IMG/VR virus record: IMGVR_UViG_3300042013_000103
DNA: 64,000 nt
Direction: 5' to 3' (one strand)
Source of the DNA: a virus
Taxonomy: Duplodnaviria > Caudoviricetes
Part shown: piece by piece, positions 1-58,898 of the stretch
Position numbering within the stretch: the stretch's first letter is position 1
Layout of the letters: each line of letters starts with the position of its first letter
The notes under the pieces: model-generated
What the model saw: only the letters and a program-made list of their open reading frames with translations
What the model was told of the DNA's origin: nothing
Database searches by the model: none
Program-made: the position numbers and the translations under genes

Positions 1-81
1 GCGAATCGAACGTGCCATGCGAATTACCCCTTTGGGTTGTCTGTGATAATCGCAGCCAAACTTGGTGGTATACGGGCATAC

Positions 82-267
82 TTACTCCCATTCTTCTCGG
101 TCAGCAATCTCTTGCGCGTTATCACGCAGAGCTTTACGTTGTTCCAAGGTGAAGGACAGCCACATGGTTTTCAACGGATCGTTGATGTAGTTGCGCCAGT
201 TGTGTACCCGGCCCCCGTCTAGCCAGTTCGGATGAACCCACTCCGGGAGCTCGCCGTACTTATCCAT
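82..267 (-). CDS. small hypothetical phage protein
   Basis: 61-aa ORF in a minus-strand chain; HNWRNYI..W pattern; codon bias fits coding. Confidence 0.65.
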   Translation of the reverse strand: MDKYGELPEWVHPNWLDGGRVHNWRNYINDPLKTMWLSFTLEQRKALRDNAQEIADREEWE

Positions 268-424
268 CACTGGACCAGCGTGTTGGACGGTCCAAAAAGG
301 CTTTCAGTTTGGCCGTTTGTTCCGGTGTGGGTTCGGCTTCCACGATTTCAGTGATCCGATCAAATGCAGCATCGGACACCAGGATCTTTTCCGGGATCAA
401 CCCGGCCAGTTCGGTATCAGGCAT
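260..424 (-). CDS. 54-aa orphan protein resembling the C-terminal toxin-binding half of TacA/DUF1778 antitoxins
   Basis: Missing from ORF track (<60 aa). GGAG SD, ATG at 424, TAA at 260-262; MPDTELAGLIPEKILVSDAAFDRITEIVEAEPTPEQTAKLKAFLDRPTRWSSDG. ORF well supported, family call by eye. Confidence 0.6.
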   Translation of the reverse strand: MPDTELAGLIPEKILVSDAAFDRITEIVEAEPTPEQTAKLKAFLDRPTRWSSDG

Positions 425-433
425 GATTAACTC

Positions 434-778
434 CTAAGTGTTAACTTGGGCGTAAAGTTCAGAACACAGGCTGACCAGATAGACCGCTTTGCCGTCAGCG
501 TCATGTTCCAAGCCATTGGGGTGGTTGCCAGGGTAGAACGGAATGAAGTTCCCTGCGCCATCGGTTAAACGAAACTTGGCATCGGCCCCGTCCCGTGAGT
601 CGGTTAGCGACAGCATGATGTTGAGCCCCATTGTCATGCCTTGTTCGTAGAACGACAGTTCCCGTGCGGACCAACCAAATTGTTCCGCCACACCGGCTTG
701 AAATTCCATTCGTTGCTTACGCCATTCTCGAATGTCATCGATAAGGGCTTGACGGGTTTCGTCACTTGCCGGGGTCAT
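434..778 (-). CDS. hypothetical protein
   Basis: Start revised to ATG 778 (GAGGT SD, ATGA overlap with upstream stop). Confidence 0.7.
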   Translation of the reverse strand: MTPASDETRQALIDDIREWRKQRMEFQAGVAEQFGWSARELSFYEQGMTMGLNIMLSLTDSRDGADAKFRLTDGAGNFIPFYPGNHPNGLEHDADGKAVYLVSLCSELYAQVNT

Positions 779-1071
779 GGATGTGTCACCTCGATGGGGT
801 TGTCCAGGTGTAGCTGGATGTGTCGATCGCTCCAACCCAGGGCTTTGAGGCGCCGGGTTTCAGTGGCGGTGTTGATGCGGCTCAACAGGACTTTGTCCGC
901 GTCATCGTAAACACCCTTCTTGCTCAACAGATACGCCACGTCCGCCACTGTGGGTTCGTTGTTCGGGTTGGGGTCTATGCGCGTATGTAGTGCTTGGCGC
1001 CATTCCTCTTCCGTCCCTTTGAACTTACATTGCACTGCGGCTTCATAAGCCGACTTGCCGACATCGGTCAT
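775..1071 (-). CDS. hypothetical protein with SAYE..GTEEEW motif
   Basis: Start revised to ATG 1071 (AGGAG SD, ATGA overlap); KSAYEAAVQCKFKGTEEEW. Confidence 0.7.
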   Translation of the reverse strand: MTDVGKSAYEAAVQCKFKGTEEEWRQALHTRIDPNPNNEPTVADVAYLLSKKGVYDDADKVLLSRINTATETRRLKALGWSDRHIQLHLDNPIEVTHP

Positions 1072-1368
1072 AAGTAGAAACTCCTGTCGTCTTTCGGACG
1101 GTCCCGATACGGCAACCAGCTGGACGGTACGTTGTGAGGGAAATGGCGCATGTGCGAGATCTCGTGGGAGCGTACGTAGAACCCACATTCGGTCTGTCGG
1201 TCCTCGTGTGTCACCACATACGCCATGTGCCCTCCGACAGTGCGGGTTTTATGTGCTTCCTTGATGATCAACTTGTCGCCGAACCAACAAAACACCCCGC
1301 CCGGTGAATGGTCATTGGGTCCTTCCGCGATTAGGCGAATGGCGTAGACCGTGTCTTTCACTTGGAAA

Positions 1369-1382
<14 letters not shown>
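1068..1382 (-). CDS. hypothetical protein
   Basis: 104-aa ORF translationally coupled to the downstream gene. Confidence 0.65.
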
Positions 1383-3900
<2,518 letters not shown>

Positions 3901-3915
3901 GCTTGACTCCGGGGG

Positions 3916-4545
3916 TTAAATGACACCACTAAACTCCGAAGACGGGAGTGCACTGGCTTTCACCTCGGCACACTCGATGTTAAATGCCTTGCGGAGGATG
4001 TCCATGGAAAGGTTTTCCCGCAGGTCCGGTCCAAACTGAGTCACCCGAATGTCCTCGGTGACCGACGCTTGGGCGCATTTCAACAACGCCCGTTGTGTGT
4101 CGGTCAGTCCGTAAGGGGTGGCCTTGAAGAAGCGATGACTGGGTATGTGGTTCGCGCGTTCAGTGGAAATCACCACCGAACCTTCTGTCGTTCCCCGGAT
4201 GTCCCAGGTCAACCCACTGTTGGTGATGTGTATCACCGAACCGCTCTTCGAGATGAAATGGAACTCGAAGTTGGGACACTCTGCCTGGAGGTCGTGGAGA
4301 CGCGTTAACACCTTAGGGTTCCGGTAGTGGATCATTTCCCCGATCGCGCCTCCTACGCTGCTCAGGAGGGCTGGACCACCCCGTAATACCACCCAATCTA
4401 TGTCAAAACTCCAATCGCGCTGTTTGTTCGGGTGCGGGAGCACAAAGTCCATCAACGTCGTCTTGATCAACATGAACTTGACGGGGGCGTTGAGGTCTTC
4501 ACACAATAAGAACCCATCCTCGGTTTTTAACAAAAAAGAAATCAT
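3916..4545 (-). CDS. hypothetical protein (possible degenerate Ntn-fold)
   Basis: 209-aa ORF; second ATG (4545) has better GAGG spacing. Confidence 0.6.
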   Translation of the reverse strand: MISFLLKTEDGFLLCEDLNAPVKFMLIKTTLMDFVLPHPNKQRDWSFDIDWVVLRGGPALLSSVGGAIGEMIHYRNPKVLTRLHDLQAECPNFEFHFISKSGSVIHITNSGLTWDIRGTTEGSVVISTERANHIPSHRFFKATPYGLTDTQRALLKCAQASVTEDIRVTQFGPDLRENLSMDILRKAFNIECAEVKASALPSSEFSGVI

Positions 4546-4560
4546 ACCCATGCCTCATAA

Positions 4561-4580
4561 AGCTTCCCCGAAGGGAAGCT
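4561..4580 (-). terminator. intrinsic terminator hairpin (UUCG loop)
   Basis: AGCTTCCC-TTCG-GGGAAGCT followed by TTATG on the minus strand. Confidence 0.75.
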
Positions 4581-4585
4581 AGGGA

Positions 4586-5119
4586 TTAGAATTCGAAGCC
4601 CCGTACTCGGTCAAAGAGTTTGGTGGTTTCCGGGGGACCGAGCAGCGTGTCGTTATCCGTGGTTTTGAGGGCATCATCCCGCAACAGTTCTTCACGACGC
4701 TTCAGCTCTTGGCGAATGAGCGCACAAGCGGACAGGGTGGGCAGATCCAACGTGTCCCAGAACACCCAGTAGTTACTGAACCCGTGGCGGTTGCTCCACA
4801 CCCCATGGGGCAGGCGTAAACAAATCCAACCGTCCAAGGCGTCCACCAACCCCACCAACTTCGACAGGTTACCGTCACTGACTTGCCCCACCATTTCTCG
4901 CAACAGGCCTTGGGCTTCTGGGTTGGCGGTGATTGAATCGCTTCCCACAATGGTGATGCTTAACACATCGAACGCATTACCTGCCACCAACCAAGTATAG
5001 TCACTGGGTTTAATGGGGGTGAAGTGTAGAAAGAATCGCGCTACTGCTGGATCCACCCAATGCAGTTCTTCGGTAGCTGACACCAAAATGCGGTGTTGCA
5101 CCGGGTTTAGAGTTACCAT
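4586..5119 (-). CDS. hypothetical protein
   Basis: 177-aa ORF in the minus-strand chain. Confidence 0.7.
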   Translation of the reverse strand: MVTLNPVQHRILVSATEELHWVDPAVARFFLHFTPIKPSDYTWLVAGNAFDVLSITIVGSDSITANPEAQGLLREMVGQVSDGNLSKLVGLVDALDGWICLRLPHGVWSNRHGFSNYWVFWDTLDLPTLSACALIRQELKRREELLRDDALKTTDNDTLLGPPETTKLFDRVRGFEF

Positions 5120-31118: not shown

Positions 31119-34100
31119 TCAGCTCAAAGATACAGGTGGTGCGGTCTGCTGTGCAGATCTGCCTGTCGGAGCCGGACTAGTAGAGGACATACTATTGTCC
31201 CGCTGCTGGGTCAGGGTCTCTAACAAGACAACCATCCGTTGTTGGGCTGCTAATTGCAGGGCGCCGTTGTCCAGCATTTGCTGCTGGATGTTGATTTGCT
31301 CACCCACGTCCTTGGTCCGTAGTTGGTCTCTCGCTTTGGCCGCTTGGTACGCCGGGCTCAACCCCGCTGGGGCTGCAGGAGCAGCGTCCATTGGAGCAGG
31401 AGCGTCCGGGGCTTTCAGCATCCCAACCGGTCCGGTCGGGGCTTGGGCCTGTGGTGCTCCGCCACTGGTGTTGGTCGGGGTGGAACCCGATGGACCCGTG
31501 GTCGATGCGGCGGCTTTGGAGACGTTGTAGGCTTTGGCTTCGTCCAAGGCTTTCTGCCCAGCGTCCGTTTCGGGAGCTTTGGCTTCGGCCACCACGTCCT
31601 TCATCTGGCCTTCCATTGCCTTCGCCTTGGCCGCTTGTGCTTCCTCTGGCGTGGTCTCTTTGCCTTCCTGGGCTTTGTTGACCGAACTGTTGGCGCCCGT
31701 CCGGTGAGGTTTGATCTTCGCATCGAACAACGCGTAGACTTCCCCGATGGTGCGGGCTTGGCCGGCTCTGAAGTAGAAGATCGACTTGTTGGCCTGGGCT
31801 TGCGCCGGGAACAACTGCGCAGCAACGGCCCCTTGATCGGCCATCAAGAATCGACGTGCCGTTTCAGGACCAAAGAAGTGGGCACAGTACATGTCCACGT
31901 CCGTCGGTTCACGGCCCAACTTACCCGCCAGGAAGCGGTAGTTGTCGAGCATGAACAAACCACCCATCAGGGCGTTGATCCGAGGGTCCAGTCGCTGTTG
32001 GCGGTTGGTGTCAGGAGGCAGGCCATACTTCGCACCGTACTTCTTGATGTAACCGTCCCACGTCCCGTTAATGAACTGGAACCAACCTGTGGCCGAAGAC
32101 GTCCCAGCTTTCGCCAGGTAGTCAAAGTTAGATTCCAACGAGACGAAGATGTTCAACAGCTCCAACGGCAACCCGATCATGTCCGCCACCGCTTTCAGCG
32201 TGGGCTGAGCCGCAGCTTTGGATCTGTTCGAAGCCGGCATTGGAATCTGTTCCCAGGTGCCGCCGTTCCCTTTGGTCAACCCACCGAACGAAGTCCCCGA
32301 CACAGCAATCTTATCGGTGACCCCGGTGTTGTACTTCAGGGTGTCGTAGACGTCTTTCCCCGAGTCGGCTACCTTGCCCCCGAACTCCGTGACCGATTCC
32401 CACGCGTTGGAGACAGTGTCCTTCACCGCCGAGAACAACCGGGCCGAGAAGCCTTTGCCCGATTGCGCGTCAACTTTCCCGTCGACCTGTTGGCCAGCAG
32501 TCATGGTGGGGGTTTCGATGATGTCCCCGGAAGCAACTTTCTTCAGGTACTCCAGTTCCGTCGCCGCCAAGGTCTGCAGCGCGTCCAGATCCCCCGTCAC
32601 CTCGAAAGGCGGTTGGACTTTCCAGATGCTGCCTTCCGGCCCGTCGGATTTGGCCCCGATGATCGCGTTACCGACCGTGACTTTGTCCGCCGCCTTTAGG
32701 GAAGCTTCCACCCGCGCCAAGTCGGTGTTACCCGTGATGACCTTGATCGACCCGATGTACGCTCGGAACACCGGCCCAAAGCGGTTCACGATCCAATGCA
32801 CAAAGCGATCGCGTTTCGCCCCATCCGACAACGACAACCCAAACATCGGTGCCGCGTCTTCCACCAAACTCCCCAGGTCCGCCGTGTAGTCCGCGGTCCC
32901 GTCTTGTTGGATTTTCAACCCCAACATGAACCGGGCTTCGAACGACAGAATCGAACTGACCGACGCCACGTCCGCCGATTCCAACCCGTACGCCCGGAAG
33001 CGCAACGATTGCAAACCGGTCAGCTTAGTGGTCGGAGCCCGCACCGTGGCCATCGCCGGAGCAATGGACGCCGTCATCTTGGCCCGCATGTCTTTGGTCA
33101 ACCCTGCAGTAACCCCAACCGCCACGGGGGACGGTTTAACCTCAGGGCCACCCATGATGTCGTCCGCGGTGAGTTCTTTAGCAGCAGACGGTTTCTTGGC
33201 CGGAAGAGCAGCAGCCGCGGCTTTGGCACCAGCGCCCGCCATGGCGGTGGTGGTCACCACGCCCGAGGCCGCCCCGGAGGGGTCTTTGGCTTTGAGTTTG
33301 TACTGCGCTTTCAACGCGGCGAGCATCTCCTTGATCTTAGGGGTCAGGTCTTCCAGGTCGTCTTCATCACCGAACGGGTTCATCCGGTACTGGTACGGGG
33401 AATTGCTACCGTCCAAGGACGACACCGAATCCAGCAGGCTGTATTTCAACGCGTCATCGATTTTCCCATCGATGTCATTCAACAACACCGACGATTGACC
33501 GATGTTCGTCAACCCTTGCAGCCAAGCGGTGAACACGGGTTTGAAGCGAAGGTCCAACCACCGCGCCATGCGCAGCACCTGATCGTCCGCATCCATGTCC
33601 ACCCCGAGGATGTCCGCAACCTTCGGCAACGACTCCTTGTTGATCTTGATCGCAAAACCATTGGCCCGGTCCACCGTGCCTTCGAGGAACGCTTCCAGCT
33701 CCAGGACTTTCTTCTGATCGCCCATAGCGTCGGCGCCGTACTGCAACAAACGCAGTTGACGCAATTCCCCACGGGTTTGCAGGTACTGTGCACCTTTATA
33801 AGCACCGTACCCTACTGCCGCCACACCGGCCGCCACCAGCACGACCGGCGACGTCAGCGCCGCCAACAACCCAGACGCCACCGAAGCCAGCGCCGTACCG
33901 GCCATGGCCATCCCAGACATCCCGACCGTACCTGCTACCGCGGCGGTGCCTTTGGCGACCGACCAAGCCGCTCCCGCACCACGGGCCATCAGGCCAGCTT
34001 TCGGAACCTTCGGCATGACCGGTTTGCGCAGCTTCCCTTTACGGCGACGACCGCCGGTGATTCCGTCCTTGATATCAGCCAAGTCCGCAGCGTCAGACAA

Positions 34101-37100
34101 CCCAAAACCGTCGTCGTCGTCTTCCTCGGCTTTATCCTTACCGCCGAGTTTGGCCATGAGTTTGCCCAAACCCCCTTTCATCAGGTTCCCAAACCCCCCG
34201 TCCGCTTTATCCGCTTTGGTTTGTTTGGTCCCGTCAGGGTTCTTCTCGGCCTCTGCTGCCCGGGACATCTTCTCCTGCCAGCTGCCTTTGCGAGGACCAG
34301 GTGGGTTCAAGCGGTTGACCAAGGTTTCGAGGATCCCGCCCAGCAGTTGATCGGTAGGGGTTTCCAACTTGCCGTAGTCAATGAGCTTACCGCCCAATCC
34401 GCCCAGCACACCCCCCATCTTCTTGCCTGCTGCGCCTGCTTTACCGCCCAACCAACCGTAGTACTTCTTGGTCATCTTCCAGTAAGCTTTGACCGGGGCT
34501 TTCAGCATCTTCTTCAGCATGCTGGATTTCTTGGCCAGGGCATGGGGCTTGCCGTCGGAGTTCAACAGCAACGGCATCTGCGTGGCGGTGAGTACGACGT
34601 TGCCTTTTAGATCGAACAACGGTCCTTTCAGGTTGTCGAAGTCGGTCAGAACTTCACCGTCCGAGTTGGCGTACTGGCCTCGACGGAGTTCATACGCCGA
34701 GACTGCTGGGTCCACTGTGCCGGGCAAGTAACCGTCTTGGTTACCGACCAAACGGTCCGTGATGAGTTTCACCCCACCCCACGCCAAGGCGCCGGCATTG
34801 GCCCCACCTTTCAGCAACATCTTGGTCAGCTTCTGCGACTGGGTTCCTGGACCAAAGAGGTAATCCTTGGCCGCTTTCGCTGCTCCTTTGACCGCGGTGA
34901 GTTTCCCCGTGGCACTGTCCACCAGTCCGTCTTTCAAGTCCTGGGCCGTGGCCACAATGCGCCCGGAACGGTCCACGATGGTCCCGGTGATGTCGTCCAG
35001 TTTCTGGATGACTACGCCCGTGGCTTGGTCCAAGTACTCGCCGGCTTTGATGTCCCGTCCTAACAACAACGGTTCCCGTCGCCCTGGAATGACCCAATCC
35101 GTCCGGGAGAATTCCCCTTCGATGGTCTGACCGAACATCTGTGCAGTAGGGTCCCAATTGTCCATGGCCTTCTGAGCCCGTTCCATGAACTCCCCTTCCA
35201 CGGCCTGTTGGGTACGCACAACCAATTGACCAGCGGAGTTGGCCAACCCACGAGTGGCTTCCATTTCCGACAACACTAAGTTGCCTTCACGGTTGATCAC
35301 TGCCCCGGTGATGTCCTTGATCGAGGTGATGATCTTTTTGGTTTTGACGTCCATCAAGTTGCCGTTGAGGATATCTGTCGCCCGGATCACCAGCTGGTTC
35401 GTGTCAGGCAAAGACAAGTCCATGACGAACTCGGACACTTTGGCTTTGGCTCCCTGCAACACGTCCGCTGCCTTGGAGAACGCTTCAGAGGCCATGGCAC
35501 CGCCAGCGGCCACCTGAGCTTTCTGGTGGGCTTCCTGAGCATAACCTTTAACCTGGTCGCCGAAATCCCCTGCCATCGCTTTAGCGTGCGCTGCAGCTTC
35601 TCCTACGGTGGCCCGCGCCTGTTCGTAGGCATCCATGGCGGGACCTTTGACCTGGGCCTTGATTTTACGGTAAGCTTCGGCAATGGCACCCCCGGCTTTA
35701 GACCCGTGAGCCCGTAACTGATCGCCCCAACCCCCAGCCTGCGCCCCAGCGCCTTGTGCGTGCGCCGCTGACGCCGCTCGGAACTCGGCTGAGCCGTCCC
35801 AAGCTTTCTGCCCGGCCACCTTGGCCTTGTTCTTCAGTTTGTCCGCCAGCTGTCCGAAGCGCCCGCCCATGCCCTGAGGCATTGGACCGACAAACCCCGC
35901 ACCGGTTGGCGTGGACTCATTGGTGGCAAACGGGTTGTCCGAAGAAATGTCCGCCCGCATGAGTTCCCACAGGCGTTCGTAGTTAATCCGGTCGTTGCCA
36001 TTCTCGGTGACGACGATGCCCAGAATCCGCAAGGACTCCGTGCCCCCCGATTCCACCAACCGCGAGATTTCGTTAAACGGATCGGCCGCCACGTCGCGAA
36101 CGTTCAAGAACGCTTTGGAGAACTCACTCAGCTTCTTGTTGTTGCCGCCGGTGTTTTCCATCTTACCGTCGGCCCCCGAAGTGAACTGGGCCTTGAAGAA
36201 CCCTGCGAGCTCTTCCTGCACGCCCCGGTCTTGGGTGTCCTTGTACCCACTGGCTTGGCTGTACTTCGCTGGGTCGAACCGCTTATTGGTGGCCGAATCC
36301 CGCAGCAACCGAGCCCCCAGTACCTTCCGCGCCTCTGCTGATAGCTTGCCTTCTTTGTCGTAGGTGTTCAGCGTGTCGTCGATGGTGCTGGACACGTTAC
36401 GGGCGGATTGACGCCCGATCACCGAAGCCGACAGGTTCTTGAGTGCAGCCCCTTCTTCCGAAAACTTCCCGTTGGTGATGTCAAACTTCACCAAGGCGGC
36501 ATCGCTGCGTCCGGTCCGGATGTTCGTCAGTTCCCGCAGTTGACGTGCCAACAGCCCAGGAATAATGTCCACCAAAGTGCGCTGGCCCAGTTGGTTCCAG
36601 GTCGCTTGTTTCTCAATGGTTTGATACTTGCTGGACTTGAGCTGATCGTCTAAGCGGAATTGGGGCAAAAAGGACGACATCGCCTTCTGCAACAACCCCT
36701 TCGCGCCGGTTTGGTTCTGTGAATTATTCATCCACTCTTGGAGCAAGGCAGGGGCGTTGTCGATGGCGTACGAAGCACGGTGTTGACCACCGCCTCGAGC
36801 ATCTAAGAACTTATCCACACCCGGACGGAGCTTGCGCCCTATCCGTGGCGCCACCGAGTTCTTGAGGAACCCCATGACGCCGTCACCGGCTAACGACCCG
36901 GCCATTTCGTAACGGTTGTCCCAGGCTTGTTTCTTCATGCCCGAGCTGCTTTGCATGGCCATGGACAATGCGCTGATAGCGCTGCCGGCTTTCTCCGAGA
37001 GGTTGCCCCGGATCTGATCGCCGTACGTCCCTAAGAACGCAGGCAGGCCTTTGGCAATCGCCCCCGAGATGCGCGACGCGGCACCCTGAGCCATTTCCAT

Positions 37101-37985
37101 GCTGACCAGTTCTTTCATGGACGACTTCATGTGCTCCGGCGTACCGGTGTTGCGCACCAAAGCTTTATAACCCATCTGGTGCAACTGCACCTGTGCTTCC
37201 GACACCCGCAGCAAATCCCGGGTGGCTTGGTAGGTACGGAATTGCAGCTCCAGTTGTTTGCGCTGGATGTTGTAACCGATCTGTTCGTTGTAGTTGGCCA
37301 TCCGGGTGATGCCGTCGACGGCCATCGACATGCCACGGGACATGAAGTCATAACGCTTACCCGAGACCCGATCGCGGATACCACGTTCGGCTTGGGCCAG
37401 GGTAAAGCGACGGTCCGCGTTGCGTTCCGATTCCTGGTGGGTGCGTTGGGTGACCAACGTGTTCTGGTCCATCGCCCCACGGATTTCGTCTTCGTCAGCC
37501 TGTTGCTGAGCCCGTTGACGGATCTTGAGTTGGTCGCGGCTGGATTCTTGTTGGTACTTATACTGGTCAAGTTTACTTATTGTAGCTTGATCCAGACGGT
37601 CGTACAAAGACTGGGGAATTTTGCTTTGAAGAGCTGGCATAGCCAACTGCGCTTCTTTAGCAATGGTGGACAAATCCCCCGGATGCTTCCGTTCAATCTC
37701 ATCCACCACGTCCGTCAACATCTGCTTGCTGGCGTCCATCACCCCAAAGGTCCGGTTAATCCCGTCCGGGGTCATGCTGCGCAAGAACGACGTCAGTACC
37801 GTCTTCCCTTTATTCTTATCAACCAACGACCCTTTCATGCCAACAGCAAACTGGCGCAACGGGCCTTTCTTTTTCTCAGTGGGATCAGGGCCAAAGATAT
37901 CGTCGATATTCCCCAAGTCCAACACGGCCATCTGTTGCGTGATGCCCGAGTTTTTCTGTAATAACTTAGTCTTTTTGGTCGCCAT
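31119..37985 (-). CDS. tail tape measure protein with lytic transglycosylase domain, phiKZ gp181-like
   Basis: About 2288 aa, Ala/Gly-rich helical; SLT motif SLESNF...SSATGWFQFINGTW near the C-terminus; divergent from RNAP beta'. Confidence 0.92.
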   Translation of the reverse strand: MATKKTKLLQKNSGITQQMAVLDLGNIDDIFGPDPTEKKKGPLRQFAVGMKGSLVDKNKGKTVLTSFLRSMTPDGINRTFGVMDASKQMLTDVVDEIERKHPGDLSTIAKEAQLAMPALQSKIPQSLYDRLDQATISKLDQYKYQQESSRDQLKIRQRAQQQADEDEIRGAMDQNTLVTQRTHQESERNADRRFTLAQAERGIRDRVSGKRYDFMSRGMSMAVDGITRMANYNEQIGYNIQRKQLELQFRTYQATRDLLRVSEAQVQLHQMGYKALVRNTGTPEHMKSSMKELVSMEMAQGAASRISGAIAKGLPAFLGTYGDQIRGNLSEKAGSAISALSMAMQSSSGMKKQAWDNRYEMAGSLAGDGVMGFLKNSVAPRIGRKLRPGVDKFLDARGGGQHRASYAIDNAPALLQEWMNNSQNQTGAKGLLQKAMSSFLPQFRLDDQLKSSKYQTIEKQATWNQLGQRTLVDIIPGLLARQLRELTNIRTGRSDAALVKFDITNGKFSEEGAALKNLSASVIGRQSARNVSSTIDDTLNTYDKEGKLSAEARKVLGARLLRDSATNKRFDPAKYSQASGYKDTQDRGVQEELAGFFKAQFTSGADGKMENTGGNNKKLSEFSKAFLNVRDVAADPFNEISRLVESGGTESLRILGIVVTENGNDRINYERLWELMRADISSDNPFATNESTPTGAGFVGPMPQGMGGRFGQLADKLKNKAKVAGQKAWDGSAEFRAASAAHAQGAGAQAGGWGDQLRAHGSKAGGAIAEAYRKIKAQVKGPAMDAYEQARATVGEAAAHAKAMAGDFGDQVKGYAQEAHQKAQVAAGGAMASEAFSKAADVLQGAKAKVSEFVMDLSLPDTNQLVIRATDILNGNLMDVKTKKIITSIKDITGAVINREGNLVLSEMEATRGLANSAGQLVVRTQQAVEGEFMERAQKAMDNWDPTAQMFGQTIEGEFSRTDWVIPGRREPLLLGRDIKAGEYLDQATGVVIQKLDDITGTIVDRSGRIVATAQDLKDGLVDSATGKLTAVKGAAKAAKDYLFGPGTQSQKLTKMLLKGGANAGALAWGGVKLITDRLVGNQDGYLPGTVDPAVSAYELRRGQYANSDGEVLTDFDNLKGPLFDLKGNVVLTATQMPLLLNSDGKPHALAKKSSMLKKMLKAPVKAYWKMTKKYYGWLGGKAGAAGKKMGGVLGGLGGKLIDYGKLETPTDQLLGGILETLVNRLNPPGPRKGSWQEKMSRAAEAEKNPDGTKQTKADKADGGFGNLMKGGLGKLMAKLGGKDKAEEDDDDGFGLSDAADLADIKDGITGGRRRKGKLRKPVMPKVPKAGLMARGAGAAWSVAKGTAAVAGTVGMSGMAMAGTALASVASGLLAALTSPVVLVAAGVAAVGYGAYKGAQYLQTRGELRQLRLLQYGADAMGDQKKVLELEAFLEGTVDRANGFAIKINKESLPKVADILGVDMDADDQVLRMARWLDLRFKPVFTAWLQGLTNIGQSSVLLNDIDGKIDDALKYSLLDSVSSLDGSNSPYQYRMNPFGDEDDLEDLTPKIKEMLAALKAQYKLKAKDPSGAASGVVTTTAMAGAGAKAAAAALPAKKPSAAKELTADDIMGGPEVKPSPVAVGVTAGLTKDMRAKMTASIAPAMATVRAPTTKLTGLQSLRFRAYGLESADVASVSSILSFEARFMLGLKIQQDGTADYTADLGSLVEDAAPMFGLSLSDGAKRDRFVHWIVNRFGPVFRAYIGSIKVITGNTDLARVEASLKAADKVTVGNAIIGAKSDGPEGSIWKVQPPFEVTGDLDALQTLAATELEYLKKVASGDIIETPTMTAGQQVDGKVDAQSGKGFSARLFSAVKDTVSNAWESVTEFGGKVADSGKDVYDTLKYNTGVTDKIAVSGTSFGGLTKGNGGTWEQIPMPASNRSKAAAQPTLKAVADMIGLPLELLNIFVSLESNFDYLAKAGTSSATGWFQFINGTWDGYIKKYGAKYGLPPDTNRQQRLDPRINALMGGLFMLDNYRFLAGKLGREPTDVDMYCAHFFGPETARRFLMADQGAVAAQLFPAQAQANKSIFYFRAGQARTIGEVYALFDAKIKPHRTGANSSVNKAQEGKETTPEEAQAAKAKAMEGQMKDVVAEAKAPETDAGQKALDEAKAYNVSKAAASTTGPSGSTPTNTSGGAPQAQAPTGPVGMLKAPDAPAPMDAAPAAPAGLSPAYQAAKARDQLRTKDVGEQINIQQQMLDNGALQLAAQQRMVVLLETLTQQRDNSMSSTSPAPTGRSAQQTAPPVSLS

Positions 37986-38042
37986 GGGAAACTCCATCGA
38001 CTGTTAAATAATCATATCGTAACCCTCTAAGAGGTACCTACA

Positions 38043-39700: not shown

Positions 39701-42700
39701 ATGCGTTTAAAAATAGTACCGTTTCTGAAAGCGTTCGGCTTGCGTCAAGCGGCCAACCTGCAGAACCCGCGTTTGATTCCCATCGCTAAGCTGGAACTGC
39801 CGCTCGAGTCCATCTTCCATTTCTTCGTGGACAACAAAGCGGCCCGTGGCCCTACGCAAACCGACCCCCTGTTCAACCGCCTGCAGGGCAAGACGTACTT
39901 GGAACACGTGACGGAGCTGGTGTCGTTTGAAGGCAACCCTCGTCAGACGGCGTTGAAAGCCCCGCTGTTGATCAACGAGTTCCGTCGGACCAACCGGTTC
40001 TTCAAACCGTTGATGCGGGACCAAGCGTTGCCGTTGAACCAGCAGAACACGCTGATCGTCAACTACAACCTGCTGCCGGCCTTGTACCGTTACCAGGACA
40101 CGTTCAAAGCCCATTGGTTCCGTTGGTCGAACGAACACCGGACCTTCTGGACCCACGTAGCGGCCACCCACCGTCGGTTTGGTTGGAACCAGTTCGTGGA
40201 GGTGCACCTGCCGGAGAACATGCCGTCGCTGTCCGAGTTCCGTCGCATGGCGTCGGGGCAACCGGCCGTGGCCATGGAAGCCTTAGTGAATGACGCAGCT
40301 GGACTGGAAGCGTTCACCATGGAGCTCATGCAGGCCTTTGGTCAAGACTCGCAGCTTAACCTCCTCGACCTGTACAACTGGCTGGGTAACCGCCGGGAAA
40401 CGTCGTTGATGTCGGTGGTGCCACCAGAGGCGTACGAGAAGCTCAACCTGCTGTTCCGGGTGCAGGGCAGTTTCTTCGTGATCAACCTTGGGCAACTGGA
40501 CGAATGGCGGAAGAACCCCGAAGCCACGGCCGAGGTGTTGTTGGGGGCTGATGGTAAACCCCGTGACCTGAAGTTGAGCCCGTTGACCGAAGCCGAGAAG
40601 CTGGAGATCGCGGCGCAGACCAAAGGACTGGACGGGGAAATGCTGCAACGTCGGTTCTTGTCGCTGATCGCGGCGATGATCGAGTTCAAAGCGGGGAACT
40701 CCACGCTGTTGGAACTGGACCCGGTGGACGCTGCCCAGCACCAACAAGAACTGGTGGACCATTCGGAACTCCCGGACGCCAAGGCTCCAGGGGACGACGA
40801 AGAAGAGGAAGAGTCTGCGGAACTGCCTACCGCGGCGGCGCCGTTGTTCGAAGAACTCGAACTGATGGACCTCGACTTCAAAGAAACCACCTACACCCCA
40901 CCGGACCCTGAGCTGTTCAAAACCCAGCTGGTGGTGGAGACCGATGAACTGGCGGCCGCTAAGGGCGCTGACGGGACGATCGAACCCACGGCCCCAGTCC
41001 GGGTCCTGCGGGTGACGGAAGAACCTGAGGTGGTGCGTGATGCCCCTCCATTGCTGAAAGCGGTGGTCAAAGACGCCCACGACATGTACCGGGTCGGGTT
41101 GATCTCGGCCGGCACGTTCGAACGCGCCATTGAAGACGCCCAGTCGTACCAGCGGATTCCCAACCCGTTTGGGGAAGGCACCATCGAAGAAGCGATGCAG
41201 TACCAAGAGTCGGATTACCAGATTCCGGCAGACACTGCGTTCCGTGACAGCAAGACCGTGTTCGACAAGTCCATGCTTTCGTCCAAACTGCAACCGATGC
41301 AACGCAAGTACATCAAGACCCTGTTGCCGAAGGACATCTTGAACTGCGTGGTCGCCGCCCAGAAACAAGGTGCGGCGTTGCTGGACTACAAGGTCACGGA
41401 AGTCAAGGATTTGATGAACCACTATCAAATCCACAAGATCGTCATGAAGCCGGTGCGCGGTAAAGCCTCGCCGTTGATGTTCAAGATCCCAGTGATCGAC
41501 GACGACGGCCGCTTCCGTTACAACGGCGTGACTTACCGTCAACGCCTGCAACGCGGGGACAAGCCGATCCGTAAAGTCAGCCCGACCTCGGTGGCGTTGA
41601 CCTCATACTACAACAAGACCTTCGTGTTCCGTTCCAAGCTGGCGGCGAACAACTTTGACGAATGGCTCTGCCGGGAAATCCGCAGCCGAAACATGGACGA
41701 GAAAGATTCGTCCGTGCACGACGTGCAGTTTGCCGAGTTGATCCAGTCCGAGTACCACCTGCCACGCATCTACACCCTGTTGGGTTCCGCATTCCGCGCC
41801 CTGGGCAGTAACCAGTACAACTTGTACTTCCGTTACAAGGACCGGGTGGAGCACTTCGAGAAAACCTACGGTATTAATGTGGCGTCGTTTGAAACGCCGG
41901 ACATGGTGGTGGTCGGGGCGGTTGGCAAAGACCCTATCCTGCTCGACTTCAAATCCCAGTTCTACCTGTTGAAGGGCGGGGACCTGGAACCGTTGGGGGA
42001 CGTCTGTGACCTGATAGGGATCGACCAAACCACGGCGTCGATTGAAGCGGTAGTAATGTCGGTGTCCAACAAAGACCTGCCGGTCGGGTTTGTGATTGCG
42101 TACCAATCTGGGTTGACCAAGCTGCTGGAGACCTTGGGGGTGACTTACACCCGCCATGCGCGGGCTGAACGTTTGACCTTGAGCCCGGACAACTACGTCT
42201 TGACCTTCATGGACGAGAAGCTGGTGTTCTCCCGCAATGACTACAAAGCCACGTTGGTGCTGGCCGGGTTCCTGCAGTTCCGCAAGTCGTTGGTGAACTA
42301 CTCCATCTACGACTTTGATCGCAAGGACGTGTACTACCGGTTGATGGAAGACAAGGGCATGAACGCCCGGTACCTGCGGGAAATCGAGTCCCTGTATAAA
42401 AGCTGGATGGACCCGATCACCGAAGGCATCTTGTTGTCCATGGACGAACCGACGGACTTCGAAGCGTTGCTGTACCGCTCTGTGGAGCTGCTGATGACGG
42501 ATTGGAGTCCGTCTGAGGTCGATGGTGCTTACATGCGCTATCGTGGCTACGAACGCATGGCAGGGACGATCTACAACGAACTGACCGCCTCGATCAAACG
42601 CTTCCGGGCGCGCAACACCGACGTGCAGATTCAGATGGACCCGCACGAGATCTGGCGCCGGATTGTGGCTGACCCTACCGTGGCCACGATTGAAGACGCC

Positions 42701-44131
42701 AACCCGATTGCCCAGATCCGCGAACAGGAAGCCATGACGTACCGCGGTGCGGGTGGTCGAGGTTCCCAGTCGATGGTGGCCCGTACCCGTATCTACAACG
42801 AAGCGGACTTGGGGGTGGTGTCGGAATCCACGGTGGACTCGGGTGACGTGGGCGTGATCGCTTACTTGACCCAAGACCCTAACTTTACCGACATGCGGTA
42901 CAACAGCCGTCCGTTTGATCATGCGAGTGAAAGCCCAGGTAAGCTGCTCTCCACCTGTTCCCAACTTGCAGTAGCGTCGACGAACGACGACTCGAAGCGG
43001 ATTGCCTTTATCAGCATCCAACAACAGCAAGGCGTGTACGCGGATGGTTATTCGGTAACGCCGTTGCGGACGGGTGGGGAAGGCATCGTTGCTCAGCGGA
43101 CGGGTGACATGTTTGCTGGCACCGCCGAACAAGACGGCGTCGTGAAATCCATCACCGAACACGGGATCATCGTGCAGTACTTGGATGGTTCGGAACGCGG
43201 TTGGCAGCTCGGCACCCGCCACGGTTCCGCCGCCGGTACTAACTACCCGCACTCGCTGGTCACGGACATGGTGGTCGGGGAACGGTTCCAGAAGGGGGAC
43301 TCGGTTGCTTACAACGAGAAGTACTTCGCCAAAGACCGCCTGAGCCCTAAGCAGGTCCTGTGGAAGGCCGGGGTGATGGTCACCGTGGCGTTCAGCGATA
43401 ACCTGGACACGTTGGAAGACGGTTCCGTGGTTTCGGAAGAAGTGGCGCGTCAGCTGAATACCCAAACCACCAAGGTCAAAGACATTCACGTGCGGTTCGA
43501 CCAGAATGTTTACGACGTGGTCAAGGTGGGGGATAAAGTAGACCTGGAGTCAATTCTATGTATTATCGAAGACCCCGAAGCCGGCGGTAACACGCTGTTT
43601 GACGATTCGACCCGTGCCGCACTGATGCGGATGTCAGCCTTCTCGCCTACCTCAGGTGTGGTCGGTGAAATCTCCAAGATCGAAGTGTTCTATCACGGCG
43701 ACCTGGAAGACATGTCAGGTTCCTTGGCGAAGCTGGCAAAAGAGTCGGACAAACAACGCTTAGCCATTGCTACTGCAACCGGCGGGGACGTTTACACGGG
43801 GGAAGTGGACGAAGACTTCCGCACTGGTGGGGAAGGCCTTGAGCTGGAGAACATGGTTATTCGGGTTTACATCGACCACGACGTTCCGTTTGTTTCGGGC
43901 GACAAAGCGGTGGTGTGCAACCAGATGAAAACCGTGGCTTCCCGTGTCATGGTCGGTACCAACAAAACGGCAGACGGTCGAGACATCGGCCTGATCTTCG
44001 GCAACACTTCCGTGGAAGAACGGATGGTCTTGTCGCCTAAAATTATTGCTTGCTACAGCATCCTTCAACTCGAAGCGGGTAAACATGTAGCGGGCGTCTT
44101 CAGAGGAACTAGCAATGCAAAAGCTCAGTAA
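39701..44131 (+). CDS. rpoB: virion RNA polymerase beta subunit, phiKZ gp178-like
   Basis: QQQQG..., LEDGSVVSE, GDK.., SGDK..V.NQMKTV, D..GLIF motifs; follows the beta' gene. Confidence 0.93.
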   Translation: MRLKIVPFLKAFGLRQAANLQNPRLIPIAKLELPLESIFHFFVDNKAARGPTQTDPLFNRLQGKTYLEHVTELVSFEGNPRQTALKAPLLINEFRRTNRFFKPLMRDQALPLNQQNTLIVNYNLLPALYRYQDTFKAHWFRWSNEHRTFWTHVAATHRRFGWNQFVEVHLPENMPSLSEFRRMASGQPAVAMEALVNDAAGLEAFTMELMQAFGQDSQLNLLDLYNWLGNRRETSLMSVVPPEAYEKLNLLFRVQGSFFVINLGQLDEWRKNPEATAEVLLGADGKPRDLKLSPLTEAEKLEIAAQTKGLDGEMLQRRFLSLIAAMIEFKAGNSTLLELDPVDAAQHQQELVDHSELPDAKAPGDDEEEEESAELPTAAAPLFEELELMDLDFKETTYTPPDPELFKTQLVVETDELAAAKGADGTIEPTAPVRVLRVTEEPEVVRDAPPLLKAVVKDAHDMYRVGLISAGTFERAIEDAQSYQRIPNPFGEGTIEEAMQYQESDYQIPADTAFRDSKTVFDKSMLSSKLQPMQRKYIKTLLPKDILNCVVAAQKQGAALLDYKVTEVKDLMNHYQIHKIVMKPVRGKASPLMFKIPVIDDDGRFRYNGVTYRQRLQRGDKPIRKVSPTSVALTSYYNKTFVFRSKLAANNFDEWLCREIRSRNMDEKDSSVHDVQFAELIQSEYHLPRIYTLLGSAFRALGSNQYNLYFRYKDRVEHFEKTYGINVASFETPDMVVVGAVGKDPILLDFKSQFYLLKGGDLEPLGDVCDLIGIDQTTASIEAVVMSVSNKDLPVGFVIAYQSGLTKLLETLGVTYTRHARAERLTLSPDNYVLTFMDEKLVFSRNDYKATLVLAGFLQFRKSLVNYSIYDFDRKDVYYRLMEDKGMNARYLREIESLYKSWMDPITEGILLSMDEPTDFEALLYRSVELLMTDWSPSEVDGAYMRYRGYERMAGTIYNELTASIKRFRARNTDVQIQMDPHEIWRRIVADPTVATIEDANPIAQIREQEAMTYRGAGGRGSQSMVARTRIYNEADLGVVSESTVDSGDVGVIAYLTQDPNFTDMRYNSRPFDHASESPGKLLSTCSQLAVASTNDDSKRIAFISIQQQQGVYADGYSVTPLRTGGEGIVAQRTGDMFAGTAEQDGVVKSITEHGIIVQYLDGSERGWQLGTRHGSAAGTNYPHSLVTDMVVGERFQKGDSVAYNEKYFAKDRLSPKQVLWKAGVMVTVAFSDNLDTLEDGSVVSEEVARQLNTQTTKVKDIHVRFDQNVYDVVKVGDKVDLESILCIIEDPEAGGNTLFDDSTRAALMRMSAFSPTSGVVGEISKIEVFYHGDLEDMSGSLAKLAKESDKQRLAIATATGGDVYTGEVDEDFRTGGEGLELENMVIRVYIDHDVPFVSGDKAVVCNQMKTVASRVMVGTNKTADGRDIGLIFGNTSVEERMVLSPKIIACYSILQLEAGKHVAGVFRGTSNAKAQ

Positions 44132-56015: not shown

Positions 56016-57185
56016 TTACAGGCCTTCGTTCTCGTAGTGCGTGATGCACTGGCCGATGAAAGCCAGGTAGATGTTCAACGTCACCGCCAACCAATGCATG
56101 TAGTAACCTTGCGGCTCCTGCAGTTTTTTGGAGATCTCCCCCAGCATGTGGATGAGTTGGTTGTCGTTCTTACCGGTCGCTTGGTTGCTCTCGGCAATCT
56201 GACGGATGGCGTCGTCCACCACGTGCTTCACCGACACGAAACTGGTTTCCCCGACTTTCACTTTGTCAGTGAGGGCCAGGATCGCCGCGATGGCGTCCAA
56301 CAGTTTCCCTAGTTGCATCACTGGGGGTACTGCAATCTCGCGTTCCGAGCGGTCCATGGTGGCCAGCTGCAGTTCCGAGAAAGACATGATCAAGGCTTTG
56401 CGGATGGCGTTCTGCGAGTCCTCGTTGGCTTCGCAGCGTTCCACGACTTCTTCTGGTGGGGTGTACACGAACGCGTAGTTCCCCGGCAAGATCGTTGAAC
56501 GGTCCAACCCTTCTTGGCCCATTTCACGCCCAGACATGGCCACGGCCCCTTTCGGACGCACGAAGTGCTGGCGCATGGCGGTGGCAAACTCTTGGGCCCC
56601 TTTCGCGGCGACGTCGTCCCCAGGGTTATTGGCCACCAGGTTCAACATCCGACGGCTGCTGTCCCGGGCAATCCCCACCACGGCTTTCGGATACACGTTC
56701 AGCACGTAATCCGTGATCGCGGCGATGTCGCTCAGGTTGGACAGCTCCGACCCGACAAACTCGCCATTGATGGACAAGCGTTGCAGGCCGGAGACCGTGA
56801 TGCTCCCCGAAGTGGCACGGGAGTTCAGTTTGGAAAACCGTTTGGTCAGCCCGATTTGTGTCTTGCGGACACGGGCGGTGCTGCCAGTGAACTTGACGTA
56901 GAGAGAACTGAGGGTTTCGTACACGTACCGGATCATTTCCCGGGCGATACGGGCAGCTTCTTTCAAACCTGCCTTCAAAGCCCTCAGTGTGATCATCCCA
57001 GTTTGCGCAACGTCAAACTGAGGGTCAATGCTCTCAATGGAGATGAGCATGGTTTTTGCCACGTCACCTCCAATCTCATCGCGTCCATCCAGCAACCGAA
57101 TGTACTGCTCCAGACTGGTCGAGTACTTGGCCAACCGCTCCATGTCCCGATCCACATCTCGGTTAAACTGTTTGATGGACATCAT
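56016..57185 (-). CDS. internal head protein (phiKZ gp162/gp163 paralogue family)
   Basis: SLE/SIE processing sites; shared S.ILPG.Y...; L..GGEF motifs with its neighbour; synteny. Confidence 0.72.
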   Translation of the reverse strand: MMSIKQFNRDVDRDMERLAKYSTSLEQYIRLLDGRDEIGGDVAKTMLISIESIDPQFDVAQTGMITLRALKAGLKEAARIAREMIRYVYETLSSLYVKFTGSTARVRKTQIGLTKRFSKLNSRATSGSITVSGLQRLSINGEFVGSELSNLSDIAAITDYVLNVYPKAVVGIARDSSRRMLNLVANNPGDDVAAKGAQEFATAMRQHFVRPKGAVAMSGREMGQEGLDRSTILPGNYAFVYTPPEEVVERCEANEDSQNAIRKALIMSFSELQLATMDRSEREIAVPPVMQLGKLLDAIAAILALTDKVKVGETSFVSVKHVVDDAIRQIAESNQATGKNDNQLIHMLGEISKKLQEPQGYYMHWLAVTLNIYLAFIGQCITHYENEGL

Positions 57186-57188
57186 GAG

Positions 57189-58898
57189 TTACGCCTCGGC
57201 AGGTGCTTCGTGGTGACCGACGAACGCTTCCAGCACGGCGATGTGTGCTTTCACGGTGTTGAACAGGTAGCCCAGGAACGGACGGTTCTGTGCAATGCCG
57301 TGTTTGGCGATCGACTGGTACAGGTTGCCCATGGCGGTGACGTCTTCGTTGCTGCGCAGGAAGCCTTCGATTTTCAGACCGGTGCCCATGGTCGACATGC
57401 CTTTGGCCAGCGCCTTGTACTTCTCGCGGCCTTGCTGGTTTTCGATCACACCGTCCACGATTTCACGCAGGGCTTTCACCATGCCTTTCATTTCAGCTGG
57501 GTTCGGCACGTCCACGACGAACTCGCCTTGTTCCTGAGCCGACGCACCGTCGATACGGCTGAAGTCGATGTTCAAGGCTTTGCCGCCTTGTTGCAACATC
57601 GCCACGGTGTCGTCACCCGCTTCGGCGTTCTCGTTGATGCCCACGAACAACGCGTAGTCACCCGGCAGGATCGCGGAACGGTAGACCAGGTCGTAGTCGC
57701 TCATGGCCGAGGAGGCTTGGGCGTCTGGAATCGGTTTGGCCGTTTTGAACGTACCCGACACGTTGGCTTTCAACGCTTGGGCCAGTTTGGTCTGGAAGCT
57801 GGTGTTGTCACCGGCCTTGGCAGAAGCCATGATGTCGGTCAGCGTTTTTTGGAAGCTGCCCGGCCAGGTCACCAACAGTTCGGTGGCCACTTCTTTCAGG
57901 TTCTTCAGGCCTTGGGTGTTCTTCGCCGAGAACTCGCCGCCAATGGTCAGACGCGCTGCACCTTTGATGGCGATCTTGTCCTTGTTGGCTTTGCCCACGG
58001 TACCGGCTTTGGCATCCAGTGCGTCCAGGCGCTCTTTCAGCTTGCCGGCGTCTTGGGTGAAGGCTGCCCAGGCGTCGAGGATCAGCTGGATCAGTTTGGC
58101 CAAGGCTTCTTTGGCCACGGCGCCCACTTGGGCAGCACCTTTCTGCAGGTTTTCCAGCAGTTCGTTGGAGACCACGATGCGGTCCACCGGCGAAGCGAAG
58201 CCTTCGTTGGACGGCACGGTCGGGGCGTGTTTCTGACCGAACAGGTCCATCGAGAACGCTTCCAGGCCGATGCGAATGGTTTCAGCGGTTTCTGCCGAGA
58301 TGAAACCTTTGTCCGCAATGGCCTTGCCCACGACCGCTTGGTAACGTTCCAGTGCAGCTGCTACGGATTCGAAACGTTCCAGGTCGTCGGCCACGCCGTC
58401 GGATTCTTCGAGGAACTCGTCGGAGCGAGCGCCAATGCCGGAGTCGGTGATGGCGTCCACCGCCGCATCGATGTCTTCCGGCGCAGTATCGGCTTCCACG
58501 GTTTGCGACGGGATGGTCGATTCGCCTTCGTTCTCGACGATGTTCTCGGTCGCCGGTTTGGCTGGGTCGATGGCGTCTTTGACCACCACGGTGTCGGCCA
58601 CGCCGGCCACGGCACCTTCCACGTCGCCTTGGTCCACGCCGTCTTGCGGCAGGACGCTCGGTTTGGCCGGTTCTTGAGGAGCCAGTTCTGCGTTGCCTTC
58701 ACCGTTGTTCTTTGGACCGAGTTCGGTGGTGGTGCCCGCTGGGCTGGCGGTTACACCGGCGTCAGCGCCGACCACGGCTTGGATTTCGTCTTCCACGGTG
58801 GTTTCGTTTTTCAGGTTGGCAGCAACGTCACCGGTCGGGGCAGCATTGGTGCCCAGGTTTTCCAACGCGGCAATCAGTTTGGTAGAGTTAAAGCGCAT
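57189..58898 (-). CDS. internal head protein with a long acidic propeptide (phiKZ gp162/gp163 family)
   Basis: ALE at residues 11-13, GLEAF, SNEGF; SAILPGDY; paralogue of 56016..57185. Confidence 0.75.
   Translation of the reverse strand: MRFNSTKLIAALENLGTNAAPTGDVAANLKNETTVEDEIQAVVGADAGVTASPAGTTTELGPKNNGEGNAELAPQEPAKPSVLPQDGVDQGDVEGAVAGVADTVVVKDAIDPAKPATENIVENEGESTIPSQTVEADTAPEDIDAAVDAITDSGIGARSDEFLEESDGVADDLERFESVAAALERYQAVVGKAIADKGFISAETAETIRIGLEAFSMDLFGQKHAPTVPSNEGFASPVDRIVVSNELLENLQKGAAQVGAVAKEALAKLIQLILDAWAAFTQDAGKLKERLDALDAKAGTVGKANKDKIAIKGAARLTIGGEFSAKNTQGLKNLKEVATELLVTWPGSFQKTLTDIMASAKAGDNTSFQTKLAQALKANVSGTFKTAKPIPDAQASSAMSDYDLVYRSAILPGDYALFVGINENAEAGDDTVAMLQQGGKALNIDFSRIDGASAQEQGEFVVDVPNPAEMKGMVKALREIVDGVIENQQGREKYKALAKGMSTMGTGLKIEGFLRSNEDVTAMGNLYQSIAKHGIAQNRPFLGYLFNTVKAHIAVLEAFVGHHEAPAEA

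Follow-up and report, generated by a model that had tools for sequence, protein, structure and literature searches.

The 64,000-nucleotide stretch of viral DNA from IMG/VR record IMGVR_UViG_3300042013_000103 (hereafter, the window) contains on its minus strand an open reading frame (ORF) of 54 codons (260..424; ATG 422-424, TAA 260-262). As judged by profile comparisons, the encoded 54-amino acid (aa) peptide is a homolog of only the toxin-neutralizing C-terminal region of DUF1778/TacA antitoxins, and it lacks the ribbon-helix-helix (RHH) domain. We propose, with a probability of roughly 0.55, that this peptide is an orphan antitoxin-like counter-defense protein that neutralizes a TacT-like GNAT toxin of the host. 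A first-pass annotation of the same DNA had already put forward that the peptide disarms a host GNAT toxin. The homology, the absence of both an RHH half and a toxin gene, and a docking model speak for that claim, whereas expression, toxin binding and a role in defense are what we infer from them.

The homology was established with several independent comparisons. In a tblastn search of 7.3 Gb of plasmid sequences, the best match to the peptide was the C-terminal end of a DUF1778 gene of Pseudomonas cerasi, with an expectation value (E) of 0.2 database-wide, and it is at this matched end that the P. cerasi gene overlaps its own GNAT toxin gene. Pairwise alignment of the peptide and the P. cerasi antitoxin yielded 17 identical residues out of 38 (45%) and co-terminal C-termini, and the motifs SDAAFD and LDRP-RWS were common to both. 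A subfamily hidden Markov model (HMM) of 97 profile positions was built from 79 relatives of the P. cerasi antitoxin, all of them from Pseudomonas. The peptide scored 18.9 bits with this model, over profile positions 62-97, while none of 20,000 shuffled peptides reached 10 bits. When the window was divided into 1,171 six-frame segments, only the peptide matched the model. Alignment of the peptide with the DUF1778 subfamily by hhalign gave a probability of 95.1%, and a match to the RHH half was not found among the six-frame segments of the window. These results bear out the earlier statement that the part resembling the DUF1778 C-terminus is present alone. When a profile of three phage proteins, including the 54-aa peptide, was compared with all PDB sequences, the top five matches were DUF1778 chains; the first was 6gtq_C, a 46-residue C-terminal fragment of AtaR (E 2.9e-4), and KacA was also listed. 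The nearest ESM Atlas clusters all belonged to TacA1/PF08681 (best value 0.84), a result that the tool itself grades as a lead only.

Other searches added little. An alignment-seeded protein search contributed one further DUF1778 protein from Pseudomonas, and a PF08681 search of the control genomes found nothing and gained no family members. The word-indexed search of 5.8 billion proteins returned the 54-aa protein itself, and no family was assigned in a PADLOC scan of the peptide. A match to a 1,310-aa protein in the protein searches was dismissed as spurious, the protein being repetitive. The family profile is legitimate as a restricted test, since DUF1778 had been named as the family before the searches were made and DUF1778 tails account for a very small share of the plasmid sequences. 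The 54-aa protein falls short of full membership in the DUF1778 family, since it lacks the RHH domain, a toxin partner and a Pfam match; it is a homolog of the working half of that family and most likely functions in the same manner. The comparisons suggest that the fragment was captured from a host-type antitoxin, the nearest subfamily being that of plant- and soil-associated Pseudomonas. The word "mimic" used in the first-pass annotation is therefore not apt, since the peptide is a homolog and not a product of convergence, and most likely descends from a host-type antitoxin of which a fragment was captured.

The anatomy of the peptide was compared with that of KacA. In KacA, the RHH domain comprises residues 5-51 and is followed by a C-terminal region with strand betaB at 52-56, helix alphaC at 57-70, the 71-PPAP-74 linker and helix alphaD at 75-86. 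Through this region, KacA wraps around KacT, extends its sheet, fills the acetyl-CoA site and prevents dimerization (PMC6698736). Neutralization was abolished by the R77A exchange, but not by removal of the 10 N-terminal residues (PMC6698736). All of the C-terminal elements have a counterpart in the 54-aa peptide, encoded on the minus strand. Residues 14-18, ILVSD (371..385), correspond to betaB and, based on alignment and co-folding, are predicted to join beta-strand 75-79 of the toxin. The first amphipathic helix (residues 18-29, DAAFDRITEIVE; 338..373) corresponds to alphaC, and here the SDAAFD block is identical to that of the Pseudomonas antitoxin. The proline linker PTPE (residues 32-35; 320..331) takes the place of 71-PPAP-74, and the second helix (residues 34-44; 293..325) that of alphaD, with a predicted position on the acetyl-CoA loop of the toxin (112-124, 154-156). 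Within this helix, K39-L40 are aligned with R77-L78 of KacA, so that the basic character at the R77 position is kept. Residues 46-50, RPTRW (275..289), represent the R-P-x-R-W/Y end that is common to the Pseudomonas DUF1778 subfamily and the phage modules described below. An AlphaFold model of the monomer had a predicted template modeling score (pTM) of 0.29, with helices at residues 18-29 and 34-44 and no compact fold. According to this model, the peptide is intrinsically disordered, as expected for a tail that folds on its partner.

Docking onto a toxin was predicted by co-folding. GNAT toxins were taken as an alignment from the loci of nine members of the Pseudomonas subfamily, and the closest one was co-folded with the peptide using that alignment. 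Three runs with this cognate-type Pseudomonas GNAT toxin gave values of 0.75, 0.74 and 0.75, compared to 0.00 for the best of three controls. In the calibration, 58 of 80 solved complexes attained this mark, compared to 2 of 110 mismatched pairs. The predicted local distance difference test (pLDDT) value of the partner was at least 74, and at least 83% of the contacts were common to the runs. The predicted contacts reproduced the binding mode of KacA: residues 14-18 were placed on toxin strand 75-79, and the second helix on segments 112-124 and 154-156, so that the contacted part of the toxin would include the Q-G-Q-G acetyl-CoA loop. Complex modeling had been one of the checks named by the first-pass annotation, and the interface with a Pseudomonas GNAT toxin was predicted as anticipated.

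The peptide is not alone among phages. Weak tblastn matches in the phage collection were a 98-aa protein of the T4-like Klebsiella phage iPHaGe-KPN-12i (WOL25251.1; L004:1033-1329) and a 62-aa protein of Yersinia phage vB_Yru_GN1 (BES79846.1; L005:1135-1323), both of which end in the same RHH-less DUF1778-tail module (...ILSEESFDKVQELINNPPAPSDKLIELMTRPRRY...). The Yersinia phage protein reached the Pfam TacA1 threshold with 21.8 bits, over profile positions 44-77 of 80 only, and it also matched phrog_10531, the PHROG of full-length DUF1778 proteins. Relatives with the RHH-less module are present in at least 193 lytic phage records, mostly T4-like phages of Klebsiella, Enterobacter, Cronobacter and Citrobacter, together with jumbo phages of Erwinia and Pectobacterium. 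The module proteins fall into phrog_7517, phrog_26056 and phrog_15218, all annotated as "unknown function"; further small proteins of enterobacterial lytic phages (L022:287-595 and L023:284-577) belong to phrog_7517 and phrog_26056. A profile of six phage modules, built without the peptide of the window, scored the peptide at 23.9 bits, versus a maximum of 13.1 bits among 20,000 shuffles. Direct comparison of the peptide with phrog_7517 by hmmscan yielded an E of only 0.061. The genomes of iPHaGe-KPN-12i and vB_Yru_GN1 are complete, and no PF00583 GNAT gene was found in either of them, while the control search matched 14 of 14 genomes. Because of this family of modules and the two GNAT-free complete genomes, the toxin-less and RHH-less state is the rule for the phage module and not an accident of one window.

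The module occurs in different protein contexts. In T4-like phages, it is preceded by a Cys-rich CxxC...CC segment. Two larger proteins containing the module are encoded by jumbo phages, i.e. gp111 of Erwinia phage Deimos-Minion (L020:272-847) and a protein of Pectobacterium phage vB_ParM-25 (L021:455-1315); in one of the two, the module follows a 130-residue unknown domain, and in the other it precedes a Walker-A P-loop kinase-like domain with weak matches to Pfam KTI12 and APS_kinase. As a side observation, in T4-like phages only a few small ORFs separate the module gene from a preceding DNA ligase gene, an arrangement similar to that of the window. A further, ambiguous tblastn match (E 0.03) lies inside a 275-aa hypothetical protein of Pseudomonas phage Torfinnsbu. 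A "DUF1778 domain-containing protein" was annotated by HHpred in two Klebsiella phages in a proteomics paper and was left uncommented (PMC10100988), and no characterization of a phage DUF1778-tail protein or of a TacA-like inhibitor was found in our literature search.

The identities within the aligned module, which rest on 30-40 columns, differed between the phage groups. The peptide of the window was 44% identical to the Pseudomonas antitoxin, 17% to AtaR/KacA and at most 36% to the other phage modules, whereas the enterobacterial phage modules were 17-31% identical to the Pseudomonas antitoxin and 27-43% to AtaR/KacA. This pattern is suggestive of phages having repeatedly captured, or co-evolved with, the antitoxin type found in their respective host clades, and it suggests that the 54-aa peptide was captured separately from the other phage modules.

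We also asked whether the ORF is a genuine gene. Three strain variants were compared, namely a 967-bp contig of the Joint Genome Institute (JGI; 97.8% identical), a second rhizosphere assembly and contigs from a wastewater library. Across these variants, the ORF contained nine substitutions, no indels and no stop codons, and six of the nine substitutions were synonymous; at a neutral share of 0.25, the probability of six or more would be about 0.01. The three replacements are A20V and, in the non-homologous N-terminal tail, T4N and L9S. An antisense frame whose wobble positions coincide with those of the ORF likewise had six of nine synonymous substitutions, but it is open only over 309-437 and matches nothing. 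The 54-aa protein is present letter for letter in the ESM Atlas, and it was called as a gene by JGI on the 967-bp contig, cut by the contig end to a TTG start. The ORF is thus conserved and coding-like. The wastewater library is guessed to be RNA-Seq, and its contigs cover 103-548 and 1362-1693 with about 97% identity; they may hint that a related strain is transcribed, but, as carry-over of DNA is possible, they were not used as evidence of expression. None of the metagenome runs carrying DNA of the window was recorded as RNA.

The local arrangement fits a translated gene within an operon. The ORF lies at 260-424 on the minus strand and, as the first-pass annotation had noted, is preceded by a GGAG Shine-Dalgarno (SD) motif; the peptide sequence quoted in that annotation comprised residues 14-50. 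The motif (431..434, minus strand, read from the sequence) is located 6 nt 5' of the ATG and overlaps the TAG stop codon (434-436, minus strand) of the upstream gene, which encodes 115 aa and is separated from the ORF by an intergenic gap of 9 nt. At its other end, the ORF shares an 8-nt overlap with the next gene (ATGGATAA; 260..267, minus strand), formed by its stop codon and the start of that gene (ATG 265-267). The downstream gene encodes 61 aa from its ATG (85-267, minus strand) and belongs to phrog_9546, "RecX-like filament modulator" (E 6e-19). The overlap suggests that translation of the 54-aa ORF and of the 61-aa gene is coupled. In the metagenome variant on the 967-bp JGI contig, the penultimate codon of the phrog_9546 gene is a stop (W60*), so that its product is two residues shorter. 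From stop to stop, the frame of the 54-aa ORF has only 57 codons, and therefore an N-terminal RHH domain cannot be encoded in frame with it. The ORF lies within a run of small genes on the same (minus) strand, about 1.1 kb downstream of a gene for an NAD-dependent DNA ligase. A scan of positions 1-4000 for sigma-70 promoters and terminators revealed nothing beyond the level of shuffled sequences, and none between the ligase gene and the ORF. The 54-aa ORF is a conserved, coding-like gene that belongs to a polycistronic group of small accessory genes in a phiKZ-like jumbo phage.

A toxin gene was not found. With tblastn and HMM searches, no GNAT toxin was detected adjacent to the ORF or anywhere in the window. 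The earlier remark that no cognate toxin is adjacent is hence correct, the downstream gene being the phrog_9546 gene, and it can be extended to all 64 kb. At the nine Pseudomonas loci examined, the DUF1778 gene overlapped the GNAT toxin gene in every case, in most of them by 43 nt. Most of the GNAT toxins at these loci had no precomputed Pfam match on record. The GNAT-DUF1778 modules at these loci often adjoin resolvase or integrase genes.

The genome itself gives indications about the phage and its host. The NAD-dependent ligase (1502-3583, minus strand) is closest to ligases of PhiPA3-like Pseudomonas jumbo phages, with 44% identity. Further hallmarks of phiKZ-like phages are a phiKZ-type multisubunit RNA polymerase beta subunit (39701-44131, plus strand; phrog_3148), paralogous internal head proteins (56016-58898, minus strand; phrog_8282) and a 2,292-aa ORF (31119-37997, minus strand). 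Virion proteins are likewise encoded in the window. By gene content, the window is part of a phiKZ-like jumbo phage without a close cultured relative; a megablast comparison of positions 1-5000 with the phage collection gave no match. Searches for related loci with the ligase and with a sequence alignment in viral contigs, and with the 54-aa peptide in metagenome contigs, also found nothing, so that there were no syntenic relatives with which the ORF could be compared. DNA of the window was found in rhizosphere metagenome runs from two studies. The rhizosphere source, the similarity of the ligase to those of Pseudomonas jumbo phages and the proximity of the peptide to the Pseudomonas antitoxin type are suggestive of a Pseudomonas-like rhizosphere bacterium as the host, and the identity values fit with this.

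In the mechanism that we propose, the peptide would be made early in infection and would bind TacT-like GNAT toxins of the host in the same way as the tail of the cognate antitoxin. It would add a strand to the sheet of the toxin, and its two helices would cover the acetyl-CoA site and the dimer interface. Even when the labile antitoxin of the host is no longer replenished, the toxin would be kept inactive. As a consequence, aminoacyl-tRNAs would stay unacetylated, and translation of phage proteins would go on. A toxin directed against translation acts in the cytoplasm, and would thus represent a kind of defense that the protein "nucleus" of the phage cannot exclude.

Several points weigh against this reading. 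The main gap is that neither a paper nor a PADLOC model was found that treats GNAT-DUF1778 modules as anti-phage defense. Type II antitoxins are usually specific for their cognate toxin (PMC11825919). Fusions of the module to unrelated domains occur in other phages, so that GNAT toxins may not be its target in every case. The co-folding value may be high owing to the solved AtaRT, KacAT and TacAT complexes, and it reflects likeness to a toxin-binding tail and not binding. The search for a GNAT gene covered 64 kb of the phage genome only. A phmmer search of 1.84 billion representative sequences returned the 54-aa protein itself alone, and NCBIfam contained no match up to an E of 10. Lastly, comparison with Pfam DUF1778, which the first-pass annotation had named as a check, failed: PF08681 did not match the peptide up to an E of 10 (gathering score 21 bits). 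This failure is uninformative, because a genuine tail-only fragment also falls under the threshold, the C-terminal 43 residues of a true DUF1778 member scoring 18.1 bits.

An alternative that we regard as unlikely, but that survives best, is that the module has been repurposed, i.e. that it is a portable binder of one strand and two helices which is here directed at a host protein other than TacT, such as another GNAT or an unrelated partner. The fusions of the module in other phages, with a Cys-rich N-terminal domain, with the 130-residue unknown domain or in front of the P-loop kinase-like domain, would be in accordance with this. The toxin-contacting residues, including the basic residue at the KacA R77 position and the R-P-x-R-W end, have nevertheless been kept, the peptide has 44% identity with a host-type antitoxin but no more than 36% with any of the phage modules, and the predicted complex with a GNAT toxin passed its controls. 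Residues 7-29 (window 337-406) also showed a weak similarity to gp60 of SPO1 (7xml_C, "Putative gene 60 protein", E 0.6), which could be cited for repurposing, and the peptide had a similar likeness to phrog_17758 (E 0.034). Both are too weak to be used, and they probably arose by chance or from a common strand-plus-helix binding motif. SPO1 gp60 is the phage enolase inhibitor PEIP.

It is improbable that the peptide is the antitoxin half of a phage-borne pair that serves self-immunity or addiction and not counter-defense, with a GNAT toxin encoded elsewhere in the genome. Complete GNAT toxin modules are present in temperate phages, phrog_10531 consists of full-length DUF1778 proteins, and the search was confined to the 64 kb of the window. 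Yet canonical pairs are adjacent and overlapping, as was the case at every locus examined, no such GNAT was detected in the window by tblastn or HMM, and the two complete genomes of module-carrying phages lacked a PF00583 match (control 14/14).

Equally doubtful is the explanation that the ORF is a decaying, functionless remnant of a captured toxin-antitoxin cassette that has stayed open by chance. The peptide is shorter than every bacterial homolog and has no sequence relatives past near-identical strain variants, as might be expected for a remnant. This is opposed by the strong SD motif and the coupling on both sides, by the six of nine synonymous substitutions in three variants without an indel or a stop codon, by a truncation that coincides exactly with the domain boundary, and by the maintenance of the RHH-less architecture in at least 193 other phage records.

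The notion that the ORF is not a gene and that its resemblance to DUF1778 arose by chance can be regarded as excluded for practical purposes: the ORF is short, the database-wide E was weak (0.2 for tblastn against plasmids) and Pfam gave nothing, but the family had been named in advance, its C-termini contribute very little to the plasmid sequences searched, no shuffled sequence in 20,000 came near the profile score, independent profiles agreed, and the ORF was called by other pipelines (ESM Atlas and JGI).

A broader view can be put forward tentatively, with odds that we place somewhat short of even. The role of GNAT-RHH modules is debated, and research on them has centered on persistence and virulence. 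In the broader view, the GNAT-DUF1778 modules TacAT, AtaRT and KacAT would be genuine anti-phage systems, and unrelated lytic phages would have repeatedly captured the toxin-binding tail that matches the clade of their hosts, including T4-like phages of Klebsiella, Enterobacter and Citrobacter, phages of Yersinia and Erwinia, and the nucleus-forming Pseudomonas-type jumbo phage of the window. The 54-aa peptide would be the minimal natural type II form, guarding translation. The occurrence of toxin-less, RHH-less tails in the jumbo phage of the window and in at least 193 records of lytic phages is indirect evidence that phages meet GNAT toxins as a barrier, and the phage tail modules are ready reagents with which this can be tested. 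For nucleus-forming phages, the peptide points to a cytoplasmic host immunity directed against translation that would need a countermeasure of its own. Small natural peptides that neutralize tRNA-acetylating toxins would, in addition, be useful tools for the study of these toxins.

Among known systems, TacA, AtaR and KacA (PF08681) are the closest to the 54-aa peptide, the nearest protein being a WP_065348713-like antitoxin of the Pseudomonas cerasi/syringae group. The order of strand, helix, proline linker and helix and the R-P-x-R-W end are the same (45% identity over 38 residues), and the predicted docking onto the GNAT toxin is alike. In contrast to these antitoxins, the peptide has no RHH domain, and thus no operator binding or RHH-mediated dimerization; it has no downstream GNAT gene, it is encoded by a jumbo phage of lytic type, and it remains below the Pfam threshold. 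A counterpart of very similar length is the C-terminal fragment of AtaR in complex with AtaT (PDB 6GTQ/6GTR, 46-residue chain), which comprises the same antitoxin segment. These structures are, we assume, from the work on AtaR-AtaT by Jurenas et al. (2019). The fragment is a laboratory construct, made by truncating an E. coli antitoxin, and it demonstrates that the isolated tail can be bound by the toxin, whereas the 54-aa peptide is a natural stand-alone gene product of Pseudomonas type. The modules in phrog_7517, phrog_26056 and phrog_15218 represent the same RHH-less DUF1778 tail in lytic phages. They are 20-36% identical to the 54-aa peptide, of AtaR/KacA type and often linked to extra domains, whereas the peptide is the bare module and of Pseudomonas type.

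The same strategy, i.e. a lytic phage carrying a homolog of a host antitoxin without the toxin, is known from AdfN of T4-like phages and AdfM of chimalliviruses, two orphan DarG-like antitoxins that act as counter-defense (PMC11825919, PMC13309987). AdfN was, to the knowledge of its authors, the first antitoxin homolog described in the counter-defense of a lytic phage, and the same authors noted that disorder and specificity make type II antitoxins difficult to detect (PMC11825919). AdfM occurs in nucleus-forming jumbo phages, the same phage group to which the phage of the window belongs. AdfN (NADAR) and AdfM (macrodomain) counteract DarTG as enzymes of the type IV kind that undo the damage caused by the toxin, whereas the 54-aa peptide would be a disordered type II antitoxin that neutralizes by binding only. 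If this is true, orphan-antitoxin counter-defense would be extended from the enzymatic AdfN and AdfM to type II antitoxins that act by binding. With respect to the mode of action, a parallel exists in Dmd of phage T4, a small protein that inhibits the toxins RnlA and LsoA by direct binding and thereby replaces the labile antitoxin of the host. Dmd is not homologous to RnlB or LsoB, whereas the 54-aa peptide is homologous to the antitoxin that it would replace.

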